64,000 nucleotides of DNA from Escherichia phage vB_EcoM_CUA3. Made by a program: the position numbers and the translations under genes. The stretch lies in the sequence record PP410321; one strand, written 5' to 3'. Positions 11,200 to 63,214 of the stretch are shown here, in pieces. Every line of letters starts with the position of its first letter. Within the stretch, counting starts at the first letter, position 1. The notes beneath the pieces were generated by a model that made no database searches, had not been told where the DNA came from, and saw only the letters and a list, made by a program, of their open reading frames with translations.

Positions 11200-11814
11200 T
11201 CAGTAAGAAAGAACTGAAAGATTCCAAATGGTGTAATTATTCCATTTAGGATTTCTCTCAATAGAGTCTACGCGTAGCGTAGTTCCCGCAGGGAACATCA
11301 TCTCATCTTCATCATTAATTAATTGTAAGTTTGCTACACGGGTAGATTCAGGAAATGCGCCTGGGAACTCTTCAGGGGGCGCAGCACATAACATTTTAAA
11401 GATTTCTTCCTGATAATTGTACACAAATGGTGCATCATTAATACAAAAGATATTAAATGTGCCGTAGAAGTTATAAGATGCAAAATTCCTTGCCACGTTG
11501 AAGTCTTTAGAGAAGCTCATCACGCGGTCGAATTCAATTACCGCACCCACACACATTGTGGACTCTAGATACTTTAGGGTCTTTTTAGATATACCGCGAT
11601 AGAGCTTATCAGGCACTACAGAAGTCAGATTCTTACGAATGATTTTGTTCAAAGTTTCTTGGATAGAATCCGGTTTATTTTCCATACACTGCCAGAGCGT
11701 GCTCTGTTCTAAATCGGAATACACCTCATCAATTTCTATCTGAGTATTCTCACGGAAATCCTCGCATTTGGCATTGTCGATAAATTCTGCTAATTTATGG
11801 CTTGGGTATAACAT
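11200..11814 (-). CDS. modB: ADP-ribosyltransferase (ModB-like, R-S-E class)
   Basis: 204-aa ORF; LYRGIS (Arg), SFS (Ser-x-Ser) and acidic EDE motif in ART order; paralog of the adjacent ORF; T4 order dda-srd-modB-modA. Confidence 0.65.
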   Translation of the reverse strand: MLYPSHKLAEFIDNAKCEDFRENTQIEIDEVYSDLEQSTLWQCMENKPDSIQETLNKIIRKNLTSVVPDKLYRGISKKTLKYLESTMCVGAVIEFDRVMSFSKDFNVARNFASYNFYGTFNIFCINDAPFVYNYQEEIFKMLCAAPPEEFPGAFPESTRVANLQLINDEDEMMFPAGTTLRVDSIERNPKWNNYTIWNLSVLSY

Positions 11815-11868: not shown

Positions 11869-12438
11869 CTAAAAATCCAACATTTTTAAATGAATTGTTT
11901 TGTACTCGATTTCGTATGGGTCCCTTTTGATAGTTTCGATTTCCACAATCTCGAACCGTGATAGACTGGAGACCATAAACTCACATTCAGTTTCAACCAT
12001 ATCATAAAGGTCTATGCGAGTTTCATCTATTTCAAGTTCATCTACGTTCCCTGCAAGAACAAGGTCAATAGCGTGGTTGTAGTAGTCGAAAATGAAGGGC
12101 GCATTCCTGAGACTTAAAATGGTTTTTGTTCCATATTCCCATGCCCCTGCAAACTGACGAGCCTGAGAGTATTGTGTACTAAAAGAAGTAACCCGGCCAG
12201 GAGACCACTGACACCCTACAGAAAGAACTTCAAGTTGCTCAAGTTCTCTGGGGGTAATCCCACGATAAAGCTCTACCGGAACCACTGAAGTAACATGCTT
12301 ACGAACCAGTTTGTCAAGGTCGTAATGGAAGTTAGGGTCTTTTTTGGCGTCCAGACATTTCTCTAACAATGCCTGTTCAGATTTTGAAAATTTGGAATTG
12401 ATTCGGTCTTGATAAAGACATTTTTGTTCGATGTTCAT
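11869..12438 (-). CDS. modA: ADP-ribosyltransferase (ModA-like, R-S-E class)
   Basis: 189-aa ORF; VTSVVPVELYRGIT and SFSTQ motifs; N-terminal half paralogous to 11200..11814. Confidence 0.65.
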   Translation of the reverse strand: MNIEQKCLYQDRINSKFSKSEQALLEKCLDAKKDPNFHYDLDKLVRKHVTSVVPVELYRGITPRELEQLEVLSVGCQWSPGRVTSFSTQYSQARQFAGAWEYGTKTILSLRNAPFIFDYYNHAIDLVLAGNVDELEIDETRIDLYDMVETECEFMVSSLSRFEIVEIETIKRDPYEIEYKTIHLKMLDF

Positions 12439-16975: not shown

Positions 16976-17458
16976 TCAACCTCGGTTCATAAAGGCATTA
17001 AAAATCTGGTCGTCGATTGAATAAACCGGAGCTTCCAGAATTTTCAACAGGCTGTTTTTGATATACTTGCTAGGGATATCCATATTAACAGCATCATTCA
17101 ATTCATTGTTCGGGTTGATGTCTTTAAATTCGAACCTTTCAAACTCAACCTTGTCGGGAAAGCCATCAGCGAAAAAATAAACCAATTGGTGTATTGTATT
17201 GCATGAGAATAATTTAGACTTCACTGCAATAAGTTCTTGCCAATGGTTTAATTCTTTGTTAAGAAGTTTATGAGCAAACGTAATTCTATTATCACTATCA
17301 ACAAGAAAATAACCCAGGTATTGGNGGTCGTCGCTCCAAAACATCCTGTATGCCTGGGCATTTGGGTTTTTGCAACGGAGTTTTTTGATAATCAAATTTC
17401 TGTTAATCTTATTCACCTGTAACCTCTTTAACGATATTTTTGTTATCGAAATTAGCAT
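16976..17458 (-). CDS. hypothetical protein (start uncertain)
   Basis: track ORF begins with GTG and overlaps sp; internal ATG starts are possible; contains an N. Confidence 0.35.
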   Translation of the reverse strand: MLISITKISLKRLQVNKINRNLIIKKLRCKNPNAQAYRMFWSDDXQYLGYFLVDSDNRITFAHKLLNKELNHWQELIAVKSKLFSCNTIHQLVYFFADGFPDKVEFERFEFKDINPNNELNDAVNMDIPSKYIKNSLLKILEAPVYSIDDQIFNAFMNRG

Positions 17459-18001: not shown

Positions 18002-18142
18002 TTATTCCTCGTCTTCATGTTTATGAGCAATTTCTTCGTATTCGCTGTCGCAATCTAAACAGGTCGCGTTATCCCAAACATCAAATACTGCCTGGTCTTC
18101 ATATACCGAACAACCACATACTACACATTCTACTTCTTCCAT
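18002..18142 (-). CDS. small C4 zinc-ribbon protein
   Basis: 46-aa ORF below the track cutoff: MEEVECVVCGCSVYED...CLDCDSEYEE, two Cys pairs, acidic tail. Confidence 0.35.
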   Translation of the reverse strand: MEEVECVVCGCSVYEDQAVFDVWDNATCLDCDSEYEEIAHKHEDEE

Positions 18143-18346
18143 TTAGATTTCCTCAATGCGGGCATCATATTCAAAAACTTTATTGTCATTAACAAAGGCT
18201 TTCACCAGTGCATTATTCACTTCTGCATACTGCACTGTAACCCATTCAATCATTTTTTGGTCACTAACATCCAGCGCAGTTTCTTTGGTAAACATATTAC
18301 CGTTTTCAAACCAACCAATAAATACTACGATCTCTAATTTAAACAT
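18143..18346 (-). CDS. possible Dmd-like antitoxin (by position and size)
   Basis: 67-aa ORF adjacent to gene 41 as T4 dmd; sequence resemblance is recalled only loosely. Confidence 0.35.
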   Translation of the reverse strand: MFKLEIVVFIGWFENGNMFTKETALDVSDQKMIEWVTVQYAEVNNALVKAFVNDNKVFEYDARIEEI

Positions 18347-18664
18347 TTAGATTTCCTCGCAGAAGGCCCATTCAGCATGATAAACCGTAGCGCCTTTAGT
18401 ATCATTTAAACAAACCACATCCACCGGAGCAATTACACGATAAAGACGAGGTTCTCCTCCCACTGAACGAGCAGCTCGTCCAGCATAAATCTTAGCCAAA
18501 CCGATGTCCTCAGTAAAGAATACACGATTCAGGTTTTTCTTACGACCAGTTTCAGACAGAACTCCTGTTTCCTCAGGAGGACAAAGCATATTACCAATAT
18601 TAGCAACACTACAACTTCCGTGATAATACACTTTATATTCTGCTTTACAGTCGATGGTTTCCAT
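18347..18664 (-). CDS. hypothetical protein with Arr-like ADP-ribosyltransferase signature
   Basis: about 105 aa from METID; YYHGSCSVANIGNML resembles the HGT motif region of rifampin ADP-ribosyltransferase Arr (H-Y-E class) as recalled; GGAGAA SD; no T4 counterpart at this position. Confidence 0.4.
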   Translation of the reverse strand: METIDCKAEYKVYYHGSCSVANIGNMLCPPEETGVLSETGRKKNLNRVFFTEDIGLAKIYAGRAARSVGGEPRLYRVIAPVDVVCLNDTKGATVYHAEWAFCEEI

Positions 18665-18688
18665 TTTATTCTCCAAGTTGATAGGTCT

Positions 18689-18717
18689 ATAATAACATAA
18701 CTAAAGGAGAAGTAAAC
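18689..18717 (-). promoter_or_regulatory. early-type promoter
   Basis: minus-sense GTTTAC, 17 nt, TGtTATTAT, then AGACCTATCAAC. Confidence 0.6.
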
Positions 18718-18718
18718 C

Positions 18719-18748
18719 CTTAAAACAAAAAAGGAGCCGAAGCTCCTT
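18719..18748 (-). terminator. rho-independent terminator after gene 41
   Basis: stem AAGGAGC/GCTCCTT with UUCG loop on minus-sense RNA, then TTTTGTTTT; stem overlaps the gene 41 stop codon. Confidence 0.6.
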
Positions 18749-20186
18749 AAAATTTGATAGATGCTGCTAAATCATCTAAATCGCTTCTATTAACACGCGA
18801 CTGGCGATTGACCTCTGCTTGGCGGTTCATTTCACCTGAGGCCTCACGAACGGTGTTCACTGGACCTGGGTTAGAATCGTCTTCAACTTCATACCAACGC
18901 TGATTTCCTTTCTTAACACCAATCTTAAATTTGTTGTAGTAGCTCTTATCACCATAACGAGATTTAAGCTGCTTAATCATCTGCATACCCATCTGAGCAA
19001 ACTCTTCTGTCTCGACCACACCTAACATGAAGTCTGCAGTATGTGCAATACCAAAGGATTCAGCGATATCAGCCATATCGATTTCGGCGGCAACGTTCGC
19101 ACCACGAGTAGTCTGGGCTGCAGTCCACAACAATAATTTCTTCTCTACTGCAAGACCACGTAATTCTTCGGCAACCATCTTAATCAATCCATAACTGTTT
19201 TCAGAGAAAACTTTCGTACGGGATGAAGCACAGATAGCCAAGTAGTCGACGATAACGACCTGTGGAACAAAGTTTTGTTTGAGCTTGTATTCATTTAATA
19301 ATGCACGGAATGTATCGGCATTAGCACCACCGGTAGGATACTGTTTAATCTTTAAACGACCTAAAGTAGCAGTTGAACGCCACTTATCCATCTTAGCTTT
19401 ATATTCAGGCCATGAGACGTGACCATCATCAATATCATCCAGTGATACATCCAGAAGGTTAGCATCGATACGCTTAGCACATACTTCCTCTGCCATCTCC
19501 ATGGAGATATAAAGAACATCATAACCGGATTGAAGGTAATCAGCAGCCAATGAACACAGTCCAAGAGACTTACCTACGTTTGTTCCTGCCAACAATACGT
19601 TTTCAGTACCAAACTCTGCGCCACCCTTAGTAATCTTGTTCAGAATATTAAGACGGAATGGAACCTTACGTGCTTTATCAGAATAACTTTTAAAACGTTC
19701 TTCATAGTCATCCATCCAGTCATGGCCTAATTCAGAATCGAAACAAATCGATAATGCATCACGCATGATATCTGGAATAGCACCGATACCTGGGAGTTTT
19801 CTATTTTGTTGCTCAACCGGAAGGTCGGCATTAGTTTGAATTTCAATAATTTTTGAAGTGGCATTATACATCGCTGCCTTCTGAACGTATTTCTCTGTCT
19901 CTTTAACCAACCATTCTTGGTCTTCAGGGCCAGCGTTCAGTGAACTTAAAAGCTCTTTAGCTCCTTGGTGTTCGACTTCTGAAAGGGTGCTGTTATCTAA
20001 TGCAATACTCAAAGCATTTTTAGAAGGCACCGCATTATATTCATTGACGTGTTTTTTGATTTCTTTGAAAAGGGTCTTTGCCGGACCCTGGTCAAAATAA
20101 GAATCATTCATATAAGGCCAGACCTTAGTGAAATAATCACTATTGCCTAGCAGTTGAGCCAAAATAGTTTCTACCACTTCCACCAC
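18747..20186 (-). CDS. 41: replicative DNA helicase (DnaB-like)
   Basis: 479-aa ORF; Walker A GTNVGKS; N-terminus MVEVVE aligns with T4 gp41; start codon is GTG. Confidence 0.9.
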   Translation of the reverse strand: MVEVVETILAQLLGNSDYFTKVWPYMNDSYFDQGPAKTLFKEIKKHVNEYNAVPSKNALSIALDNSTLSEVEHQGAKELLSSLNAGPEDQEWLVKETEKYVQKAAMYNATSKIIEIQTNADLPVEQQNRKLPGIGAIPDIMRDALSICFDSELGHDWMDDYEERFKSYSDKARKVPFRLNILNKITKGGAEFGTENVLLAGTNVGKSLGLCSLAADYLQSGYDVLYISMEMAEEVCAKRIDANLLDVSLDDIDDGHVSWPEYKAKMDKWRSTATLGRLKIKQYPTGGANADTFRALLNEYKLKQNFVPQVVIVDYLAICASSRTKVFSENSYGLIKMVAEELRGLAVEKKLLLWTAAQTTRGANVAAEIDMADIAESFGIAHTADFMLGVVETEEFAQMGMQMIKQLKSRYGDKSYYNKFKIGVKKGNQRWYEVEDDSNPGPVNTVREASGEMNRQAEVNRQSRVNRSDLDDLAASIKF

Positions 20187-20500: not shown

Positions 20501-21665
20501 NNAAATTCATGTTTTCTAAATCGTTTTCGATATCAGCAGCGCTTTGAGTATCACCACCTAATTTAACTGCAACGTTCTTAGAGACACGAGAGTTGATAAG
20601 GTCATTCACTGCATCATCGACTTCTTTAATAGAATTAATTGCACCAAGCTTATACTTATTCTCGATTGCTTCACGGAACGGAGCGTGTTTAAACAGAGGT
20701 CCCCAGAACTCGACACAATCAGTAGCTTTAGCACGCCATGATTTTTCTTCTTGAACCATTTCACCCGTGGTTTCGTCAAGGAATGCACGATTATACCAGC
20801 CAGCTTTAGGTTTCACGACAAAACCGATATCTGTAGCCATTTCAAGCAGACCACTAAACGGGTCGATACCGCCTTCAAAGTTCACAGTAATTGGGAACGT
20901 TGATTTCTCTTTAACAGTACGAGATTTCTCTGCCTTCAGGGTGAAGTCATAACCAGTGAGCTCAGTACCATCTTTAACCTGACGTTTAGAGATAAAGAAC
21001 ACGGTAGAAGCAGAGTACAGAATACCAGTACCACCACCCATAATCTCTTTAGGATACATTCCACCAATTTCCATAGCCGTATGGTTAATTGCTACACAAG
21101 GAATATCCTTGATAGTCAGATAAGGCGTTACGATACGGAACAGAGATTTAAGAGACTTAGCACGAGTCATATCACCTACAACTTTCTCGTTCAAAGCATC
21201 TTCGGTTTCTTTCTTAGAAGCGGTGTTACCGATGGAGTCGATAAAGATAATAACCTTTTCGCCACGAGTAATTTCTTCTAATTGGTTGGTCATGTCAACC
21301 TTCAGTTGTTCAACTGACTGGATTGGCGTATGAACTACACGTTCCAGGTCAACACCCATTGAACGGAAATAAGATTCTGAAGCACCGAACTCAGAGTCAT
21401 AGAACAAGCAAATTGCGTCTGGATATTTCTTCATATATGCCGCAACCATAGTTAATCCAAACAACGTTTTAAAGTGTTTAGACGGCGCAGCAAAGATTGT
21501 CAAACCTGATTGTAAGCCTGCATTCAACGCACCACCCAATGCAATATTAAGCATAGGAATACGAGTAGGAACTTCGTCACGACCATTAAACAATTTAGAT
21601 TTGGTCAGGTCGGCAGTCATTTTAGAAGTAGAAGCTTTAATCAAACGGGATTTTAAATCGGACAT
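20493..21665 (-). CDS. uvsX: UvsX recombinase (RecA-like)
   Basis: 390-aa ORF; RecA-fold motifs; length and position as T4 UvsX. Confidence 0.9.
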   Translation of the reverse strand: MSDLKSRLIKASTSKMTADLTKSKLFNGRDEVPTRIPMLNIALGGALNAGLQSGLTIFAAPSKHFKTLFGLTMVAAYMKKYPDAICLFYDSEFGASESYFRSMGVDLERVVHTPIQSVEQLKVDMTNQLEEITRGEKVIIFIDSIGNTASKKETEDALNEKVVGDMTRAKSLKSLFRIVTPYLTIKDIPCVAINHTAMEIGGMYPKEIMGGGTGILYSASTVFFISKRQVKDGTELTGYDFTLKAEKSRTVKEKSTFPITVNFEGGIDPFSGLLEMATDIGFVVKPKAGWYNRAFLDETTGEMVQEEKSWRAKATDCVEFWGPLFKHAPFREAIENKYKLGAINSIKEVDDAVNDLINSRVSKNVAVKLGGDTQSAADIENDLENMNXXD

Positions 21666-62254: not shown

Positions 62255-63214
62255 TTATTTTTCGAAAGGGCGAATTAAATGATGGTTATCTTGGAACCGC
62301 TTGATGTAGTCTTCNNNACCTAACGTCTTATACATATTCACTACAGCTTGGTAGTTTTCCCAGGCATACTCACGGAACCACCCGGAAGTAATTGAGGTGC
62401 ACACTTTCTCAAGAGCNNNNNNNNNNNNNNNNNATGGTGAAATATTAAAGTCATTAGGAACCTGCGAACGTTCTAGTGCCAACACACAGGTTTCTTCATA
62501 TACACCAGCTAGTTTAATAGCTTCAGGCAAAGCTTCAAACTTCTCACGAGAGGTCATGACTTCAGAACCATCTTTCATATAAAAGGTATATGCAGGGCGG
62601 CCTGCCAATGCCACGGCTTCATGAATAGAGTCATGGTCCAGCGTATAAATGGTATCGTTAAAGAATGACGATTTATTAACATCCAATTTAGGATGAGAAT
62701 AGCTCAACGTTTCTTTCTGACGTTGCAGCATGATTTCTTGGAGCTCTTCGTTCAAGGTTACACCTTTATTACGAAGGTATTTGATGTGAGACATCGTCTT
62801 CAGAAAGAACGGGTTGTTCTTCAAATAACGATGGCTCATTTTGATGGCCAGACAGATATCAGGAGTAGCCCAATAGAAACCTGTAAGACGGTCTTTCTTA
62901 ATATGGTTTTCAGCATATTTCAAGAGACGATAGCTTGAAGTGAAATCCTCATCTTGAAGTTCGCCAGTAATTTCACGGACATTAGTCAGAGCACGAACGA
63001 TATAAGCTTCAAAATAGGTTTCTTTACCATTGTGCATGCATTTAAAGGCCTGGACATCAGGGTTGTCTACATGTACATGGGCGCCGAACATCCGAGCTTT
63101 AAATTGATTCCATGACCCCTGGTCGGCAATAAAATCCCAATCAGAATTTTCGATATATTTACTTTCAATCAAACCAGCGTGGTGCAGTGCACGAGAACCA
63201 ATAACTAGCATCAT
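62255..63214 (-). CDS. hypothetical protein
   Basis: 319-aa ORF; ATG with GAGGAAAA SD. Confidence 0.45.
   Translation of the reverse strand: MMLVIGSRALHHAGLIESKYIENSDWDFIADQGSWNQFKARMFGAHVHVDNPDVQAFKCMHNGKETYFEAYIVRALTNVREITGELQDEDFTSSYRLLKYAENHIKKDRLTGFYWATPDICLAIKMSHRYLKNNPFFLKTMSHIKYLRNKGVTLNEELQEIMLQRQKETLSYSHPKLDVNKSSFFNDTIYTLDHDSIHEAVALAGRPAYTFYMKDGSEVMTSREKFEALPEAIKLAGVYEETCVLALERSQVPNDFNISPXXXXXXALEKVCTSITSGWFREYAWENYQAVVNMYKTLGXEDYIKRFQDNHHLIRPFEK

Follow-up and report, generated by a model that had tools for sequence, protein, structure and literature searches.

In a stretch of 64,000 nt from Escherichia phage vB_EcoM_CUA3 (sequence record PP410321; the whole stretch is called the window in the following), a small open reading frame (ORF) on the minus strand lies between a dmd gene and the helicase gene 41 (Table 1). 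Its product of 105 aa is referred to as small ART, since it shows the fold of an ADP-ribosyltransferase (ART) and is homologous to Arr. Both the ORF and its neighbours were found where an earlier note on this window, written from the sequence alone, had placed them. Orthologues are annotated at 105 aa, and an ORF extended to a TTG start at 18676 would share bases with the ribosome-binding site. N bases make up 6250 of the 64000 positions of the window (about 10%) and are distributed over many blocks, none of which falls within the small ART ORF. Several neighbouring genes are interrupted by such blocks, e.g. at 17325 and 20501-20502.

The 1.3 kb around the gene are 95-96% identical to Dhakavirus phages such as dhaeg, CLB_P2, JS98 and JS10. 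In JS98 the orthologue orf34 (YP_001595163.1) is labelled 'similar to RB69 orf040c, hypothetical protein' and is likewise located between dmd (downstream) and helicase gene 41 (upstream). The statement of the earlier note that T4 has no gene at this position agrees with Tequatrovirus Ozark, which has no small ART gene there and a gap of just 58 bp between gene 41 and dmd. A PADLOC search matched neither small ART nor Dmd.

Small ART and dmd are adjacent, joined by a TAAATG junction, and share a single promoter-like site. The same junction is repeated between dmd and a 46-aa ORF and again between this ORF and 61.4. The site directly upstream of small ART resembles T4 early promoters and, judged by its sequence, may serve as promoter. 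A terminator-like hairpin followed by a T-run separates it from the helicase transcript.

Table 1. Features of the small ART locus and further ART genes in the window. Positions refer to the window unless residues are given.
Feature	Position	Strand	Remarks
Small ART ORF	18347..18664	-	ATG at 18664, TAA stop 18347-18349, 105 aa; orthologue of JS98 orf34 / RB69 ORF040c; PHROG 2110
YYHGSCSVANIGNML	residues 13-27 of small ART	-	His-Gly motif region
Strand 1, Y13-Y14-H15-G16-S17	18614..18628	-	His-Gly motif of putative NAD+ pocket; aligned to Arr-ms Y17-L-H19-G-T21
Basic loop, S37-E38-T-G40-R41-K-K43-N44-L45	18530..18556	-	Before strand 2; E-x-G-R common to Arr (E40-A-G-R43)
Strand 2, V48-F49-F50-T51	18512..18523	-	Aligned to Arr-ms I48-Y49-I50-T51; F49 at the 'Y' position of H-Y-E/D
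Helix, A57-K-I-Y60-A61-G-R63	18476..18496	-	Helix 54-68 in the AlphaFold2 model
Strand 5 entry, G91-A92-T93-V94	18383..18394	-	Usual site of the ART catalytic Glu; strand 94-97 in the model
Residue pairs small ART/Arr-ms			H15-G16-S17/H19-G20-T21; E38/E40; R41/R43; F49/Y49; T51/T51
Shine-Dalgarno GGAG	18671..18674	-	6 nt 5' of the small ART ATG; read from sequence
T4-early-type promoter-like site, GTTTAC ... TG-n-TATTAT	18689..18716	-	Directly upstream of small ART; 9/12 consensus match, extended -10
Terminator-like hairpin and T-run	18731..18748	-	End of gene 41, between helicase transcript and small ART
dmd (67 aa)	18143..18346	-	Downstream neighbour; ATG abuts small ART TAA (TAAATG)
Gene 41 helicase	18747..20186	-	Upstream neighbour
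ModA	11203..11814	-	99% identical to JS98
ModB	11872..12438	-	95% identical to JS98

Taken alone, the small ART sequence matches just two curated models, Arr-ms of Pfam (E = 0.026; 15.1 bits at a PF12120 cut-off of 25) and rifampin_ARR of NCBIfam (NF033144; E = 0.07; 12.9 bits at a cut-off of 130), both of them below threshold. A family profile was searched with HMMER against 1.84 billion cluster representatives and retrieved 247 relatives. Profile A1 represents the close family, profile A2 a broader set of 43 diverse domains. In the PDB, A2 matches Arr chains exclusively (Arr-ms, 2HW2/9IAF, E = 7.6e-4; Arr-2, E = 0.064); the sequence search of the PDB gave no match with the single sequence or with A1. 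The HHalign comparison of the family profile with an Arr alignment results in a probability of 95.3% (E = 2.4e-8, 71 columns). Moreover, 34 of 56 multidomain relatives match Arr-ms with E-values down to 1.8e-9, several of them above the gathering score at 27-31 bits. A divergent member (P0120) was also compared with the PDB, producing spurious matches only (gamma-glutamyl hydrolase).

The structure was predicted with AlphaFold2 from 61 homologues (predicted local distance difference test, pLDDT, 89; predicted template modelling score, pTM, 0.79). The model exhibits the split beta-sheet of the ART fold; strand 6 is its last element, and the chain stops at residue 105 without forming a C-terminal helix. 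Foldseek ranks Arr (9iaf) first in the PDB with a probability of 1.0 and a TM-score of 0.62, followed by Tpt1 and cholera toxin. Fold matches in BFVD are restricted to orthologues, a viral protein named Arr, a PcfJ-like protein and a putative phage Tpt1. Taken together, an ART fold with a specific kinship to Arr can be regarded as established, and the fold and homology of small ART as near certain. It is a minimal one-domain protein whose core of about 95 residues is homologous to the core of Arr that binds nicotinamide adenine dinucleotide (NAD+). In structure it resembles the NAD+ lobe of the RNA 2'-phosphotransferase Tpt1 just as closely. The earlier note had likened the peptide YYHGSCSVANIGNML, which is indeed present, to Arr and had suggested profile searches and structure prediction as a check. 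These return an ART fold with Arr as closest sequence relative, so that the resemblance represents real homology.

The conservation of the pocket residues is pronounced. Over 218 homologous domains, H15 is kept in 217 and G16 in every one; loss of this His in homologues, which the earlier note had named as an argument against its proposal, thus does not refute it. In the loop before strand 2, E38 is present in 216 and R41 in 215 domains. The inter-strand loop of Arr has been proposed as the NAD+ site (PMC6092378). On strand 2, F49 is found in 216 domains, with Tyr in the other two, and T51 in 215. In the helix that follows, A57, Y60 and A61 are near-invariant and position 63 is either R or K. 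The complete near-invariant set comprises H15, G16, P30, E38, R41, F49, T51, A57, Y60, A61, R/K63, G69, G70 and G91. Within this set, H15, G16, E38, R41, F49, T51, A57, Y60, G69 and G70 reach a conservation of 98% or more. Y60 stands 11 residues past F49. In PARP1 and diphtheria toxin, the two tyrosines that stack on nicotinamide have the same spacing, and F49 and Y60 may by analogy be likened to this pair.

The position of the usual catalytic Glu is different. Among 114 close homologues, 112 have Thr or Ser as residue 93 (18386..18388), and the triad of small ART reads H15-F49-T93. Glu at this position is seen only in a subset of distant relatives, in particular in 9 of the 11 that are embedded in polyvalent proteins of more than 1000 aa. 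This split by architecture, in which the giant proteins mostly have Glu and almost all solo or mid-size forms Thr/Ser, suggests two functional subtypes. The label 'H-Y-E class' given in the earlier note hence does not apply to small ART, as a near-invariant Phe occupies the Tyr position and Thr/Ser the Glu position; its assignment to the ART fold with kinship to Arr stands. Other acidic or basic residues were considered as catalytic substitutes and rejected: E98 varies even between close homologues, H96 and E103 are conserved in the T4-like subfamily only, and D82 and D88 are conserved only in part. Loss of the Glu does not imply inactivity: two ARTs without it, Arr (H-Y-D) and Tpt1 (H-H-h), are active (PMC8120803).

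The comparison with known systems shows where the likeness ends. Small ART and Arr (PF12120; 2HW2, 9IAF, 9IBA) are homologous from strand 1 to strand 3. They have in common the motifs [FY]-x-H-G-[TS], L-x-P, E-x-G-R and [VI]-[YF]-x-T with the following helix, further G-x-G and [IV]-[YF]-x-V-x-P, and in both strand 5 carries no catalytic Glu. In contrast, Arr comprises 140-150 aa and is thus about 40 residues longer, and it has Tyr49 in place of Phe. The HGT motif of Arr corresponds to HGS in small ART. Tyr49 is 87% conserved in Arr, and the catalytic Asp84 within the DPN[VL] motif 100% (PMC6092378). The DPN motif was not found in small ART: the HHalign and hmmsearch alignments end one residue before Asp84, and positions 85-90 are variable. 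The rifampin cleft of Arr is formed by helix alpha-1, the C-terminal alpha-2 cap (M[RK][DE]xL) and the beta5-beta6 loop; small ART possesses neither cap nor cleft. Moreover, Arr is encoded in bacterial chromosomes and integrons, whereas small ART occurs in lytic T4-type phages and polyvalent proteins.

With Tpt1/KptA (9LD3, 7KW9, 8TFI) the match is limited to the C-lobe, roughly Tpt1 residues 90-175. Tpt1 consists of two lobes, of which the N-terminal one binds RNA, and has an Arg-His-Arg-Arg tetrad, whereas small ART is a single domain without RNA lobe or tetrad. The first His is present, but the second one (VHLS motif of H-H-h) corresponds to Phe49. HHalign against a shallow alignment of four Tpt1 C-lobe sequences reaches a probability of 17%. 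Small ART hence does not pass the defining tests for Arr proper or for Tpt1. No sequence similarity was detected to AcrIF11 (6KYF), the anti-CRISPR mono-ADP-ribosyltransferase of Pseudomonas phages, which is a small phage ART as well and acts as counter-defence enzyme with an H-H-D triad and catalytic Asp115 (PMC8120803). The T4-type ARTs Alt, ModA and ModB are used for host takeover. They belong to the R-S-E clade and comprise about 200-680 aa; small ART is half the size, falls on the His-type (Arr/Tpt1-like) side and does not occur in T4 itself. We considered that small ART might stand in for missing ModA or ModB, but both are encoded in the window, which therefore holds at least three genes with ART fold. 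Small ART is thus an addition to these R-S-E enzymes and not a replacement.

A particular feature of the family is its recurrence in large fusion proteins. Among the best 150 representatives, 60 exceed 150 aa and 11 exceed 1000 aa, the giant relatives ranging from 1000 to 3900 aa. Partner domains are ART-PolyVal (6), NUDIX (3), DUF7178 (3), GNAT (2), Toprim (2), ddrB-ParB and LPD23; one relative contains a PcfJ-like region below the Pfam gathering score. The remaining parts of the fusion proteins also match phage families in PHROGs. ART-PolyVal (PF18760) is a different ART family of H-Y-D type (PMC5512222), yet it is found side by side with relatives of small ART in the giant proteins. Polyvalent proteins have been argued to be packaged and injected early effectors (Iyer et al. 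2017, PMC5512222). The domain thus recurs in giant proteins together with hallmark partners of polyvalent effectors, and the protein of the window is its solo form. The two forms differ in that the polyvalent domain would be part of a virion-packaged fusion, whereas small ART is a solo gene presumably expressed after infection.

One metagenomic representative (P0186, 954 aa) combines a lambda-type portal, the ART domain and a 2H/Acb1-like phosphoesterase in one polypeptide. The fusion to a portal would imply delivery with the virion in this case. The 2H partner belongs to a class of enzymes whose substrates are cyclic phosphates, among them the ADP-ribose cyclic phosphate that Tpt1 produces.

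With tblastn, small ART was found in 609 phage records, of which 215 are from Escherichia, 116 from Klebsiella, 68 from Acinetobacter and 62 from Aeromonas phages; Enterobacter, Cronobacter, Vibrio and others are further hosts. PHROG 2110, of unknown function, matches from end to end. Several orthologues already bear the label 'putative ADP-ribosyl transferase', namely in the Acinetobacter phages Berthold, Kimel and Konradin, in Pantoea phage Phynn, in Escherichia phage 348Ecol098PP and in a Vibrio phage. As detailed below, the fold has also been predicted in the literature; the ART-fold assignment, published in silico and present in some GenBank records, is therefore not new.

Between vB_EcoM_CUA3 and Acinetobacter Lazarusvirus Berthold, small ART is 74.7% identical, compared to 58% for helicase gp41, 54.5% for primase gp61 and 48% for gp40 of the same pair. 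Judged by these sequences, its conservation is unusually strong for a small accessory gene. Bacterial genomes, on the other hand, are almost devoid of the domain: profile A1 detects 5 loci in 185,579 species genomes. Two of them reside on contigs of 167-178 kb, i.e. of the size of T4-like phages, one on a 3-kb contig of a metagenome-assembled genome and two, as uninformative single genes, in Patescibacteria. The two Patescibacteria loci (L012:5902-6348 and L013:5899-6330) are chromosomal, on contigs of 993 kb and 463 kb that are far larger than a phage genome, and encode versions of 143-148 aa extended at both the N- and the C-terminus. Beside the former lies a 347-aa ORF that by eye resembles a retroviral-type integrase or transposase.

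Based on this analysis, we consider it fairly probable that small ART is an early NAD+-using effector which mono-ADP-ribosylates a target, probably a widely conserved one, in the course of host takeover or counter-defence. AcrIF11 provides a precedent for a small phage ART in counter-defence. The gene would be transcribed from its own T4-early-type promoter as the first cistron of a translationally coupled string (small ART, dmd, 46-aa ORF, 61.4), and its product would act early in infection. NAD+ would be bound in a pocket formed by H15-G16 of strand 1, F49-x-T51 of strand 2, Y60 of the helix and the E38-x-G-R41-K-K loop. Nicotinamide would be expelled and a single ADP-ribose moved to a target conserved across gamma-proteobacteria. 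Since Thr/Ser replaces the Glu (H-F-T), the acceptor probably needs little activation; by analogy to Tpt1 and Arr this may be a phosphate or hydroxyl of RNA, DNA or a small molecule, or else a side chain with substrate assistance. Small ART would then be the stand-alone form of a domain which in other phages is delivered within giant polyvalent or portal-fused virion proteins.

Several points weigh against this view. The single sequence stays under the curated cut-offs of Pfam and NCBIfam, and promoter and terminator are consensus matches only. The strong conservation could partly stem from recent exchange between phages and not from constraint by the target. The literature that we found on any member of the family consists of in-silico predictions, with no biochemical or genetic work; the gene is not covered in the HIDEN-SEQ preprint. 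There is also no conserved acid at the canonical catalytic position and the Asp84 motif of Arr is missing.

Without catalytic acid and Asp84 motif, small ART could be a non-catalytic binder of NAD+ or ADP-ribose, serving as a sponge for these molecules or for an immune signal derived from ADP-ribose, or inhibiting a host protein by binding. The very small size of the protein would suit such a role, as would conserved pocket residues combined with the lack of a conserved catalytic Glu/Asp. In keeping with it, the surrounding locus holds many small anti-defence proteins like dmd and spackle. However, the Glu in 9 of the 11 giant polyvalent proteins argues for an enzymatic ancestry, ARTs without Glu are commonly active, and the hydroxyl at position 93 is itself conserved (T/S in 112/114) rather than free to vary, so that we regard a mere binder as quite unlikely. 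A true Arr-type enzyme, with a rifamycin-like or other small-molecule antibiotic or an anti-phage chemical as the substrate that it inactivates, appears highly improbable. Arr is the closest family by sequence, and genuine Arr genes do exist in some actinophages (Iyer et al.). Yet small ART remains far under the Arr equivalog cut-off (12.9 vs 130 bits), is about 40 residues shorter, and lacks the Asp84/DPN motif, the C-terminal alpha-2 cap helix and the rifampin-cleft loop; besides, a module of injected polyvalent proteins is ill-suited to antibiotic resistance. More weight, though still a minor share, is given to a Tpt1-like activity, i.e. ADP-ribosylation of an RNA or DNA phosphate (2'-phosphate or 5'-monophosphate) by which RNA would be capped, marked or repaired, possibly linked to RNA protection by Dmd. 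The missing catalytic Glu would fit a phosphate nucleophile as in the H-H-h clade, R41, K43 and R/K63 are conserved basic residues, and relatives are fused to a 2H phosphoesterase (1) and to NUDIX (3), enzymes of ADP-ribose-phosphate metabolism; RNA substrates have also been speculated on by Iyer et al. (PMC9503650). What speaks against it is the lack of the N-terminal RNA lobe and of 3 of the 4 residues of the Arg-His-Arg-Arg tetrad, the Phe in place of the second His, and the mere 17% probability in the HHalign comparison with the shallow Tpt1 C-lobe alignment. In addition, small ART is mildly acidic with an isoelectric point (pI) of 5.7, compared to a median pI of 9.3 in the basic wider family.

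The neighbourhood of dmd offers a further explanation. Iyer et al. (2022) predicted a toxin-antitoxin pair of a p0068-family ART toxin and Dmd as antitoxin in Escherichia, Shigella and Salmonella phages (PMC9503650). This description fits the small ART locus and probably refers to the same gene family, the identity being presumed. In such a type II system small ART would be the toxin and the downstream Dmd its antitoxin. Dmd is a known antitoxin mimic against RnlA/LsoA (PMC9503650), and both genes abut (TAAATG) in one early operon not only here but also in related Dhakavirus and Mosigvirus phages. The tight stop-start junctions, however, are general along the whole gene string. Moreover, the 797 phage records with Dmd stem almost exclusively from Escherichia, Shigella, Yersinia or Salmonella, whereas the 609 records with the ART include the 116 of Klebsiella, 68 of Acinetobacter and 62 of Aeromonas. 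In Acinetobacter, Aeromonas, Klebsiella and Vibrio phages the ART gene is located elsewhere, next to small unrelated genes. A search for Dmd homologues within 2.5 kb of it in these phages, and within 5 kb on one metagenomic phage contig, found none; conversely, Tequatroviruses have dmd without the ART. These independent distributions argue against an obligate pair, and we consider the toxin-antitoxin proposal improbable. The adjacency is better explained if both genes simply reside in the early region from gene 41 to gene 61, which is plastic. A further reading, tentative and on balance unlikely, would retain a role for Dmd: small ART as a minimal ART without Glu would use NAD+ to ADP-ribosylate either a phosphate or hydroxyl of nucleic acid (e.g. 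at RNA ends with a 5'-monophosphate or 2'-phosphate) or a nucleotide of immune signalling and form, together with Dmd, an early module shielding phage RNA from RNase defences of the host.

If this RNA-shielding function applied, hundreds of T4-type phages would possess an enzymatic chemistry of counter-defence that is new. Coming back to the effector reading that we favour, an active small ART would constitute an extra ART besides ModA/ModB (and Alt of T4) in T4-type phages of Escherichia, Klebsiella, Acinetobacter, Aeromonas and Vibrio, from a clade different from ModA/ModB and with an atypical H-F-T active site. It may also point to an acceptor, or a mechanism of counter-defence, not seen before. 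Detection is not where its value lies, although the homology to Arr is genuine and non-obvious; rather it is the question of function. With 105 aa, a conservation between distant phage genera that exceeds that of the replicative helicase, and a recurrence in injected polyvalent proteins, small ART lends itself to biochemical and phage-genetic work as a target that is inexpensive and clearly defined.

Some further genes accompany the ART. In Aeromonas phage 44RR and Klebsiella phage Miro the ART gene is immediately preceded by ORF171c (L003:1680-2441; 253 aa) and gp124 (L004:1593-2468; 291 aa), respectively, which are homologous to each other (26% identity, E = 3e-13). These two have no Pfam match and no counterpart in the 64-kb window. 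They may represent a functional partner of the ART. In phage Berthold, a gene two positions upstream of the ART (Berthold_066) is annotated as 'putative nucleotidyltransferase'. A homologue with 50% identity over 194 aa is encoded in the vB_EcoM_CUA3 window (62291..62869, minus strand), there far from small ART. The 46-aa ORF between dmd and 61.4 (18002..18142, minus strand) contains two CxxC pairs (MEEVECVVCGC...TCLDCD) and resembles a zinc ribbon. Unannotated in JS98, JS10 and IME08, it is nevertheless kept in 57 phage records.

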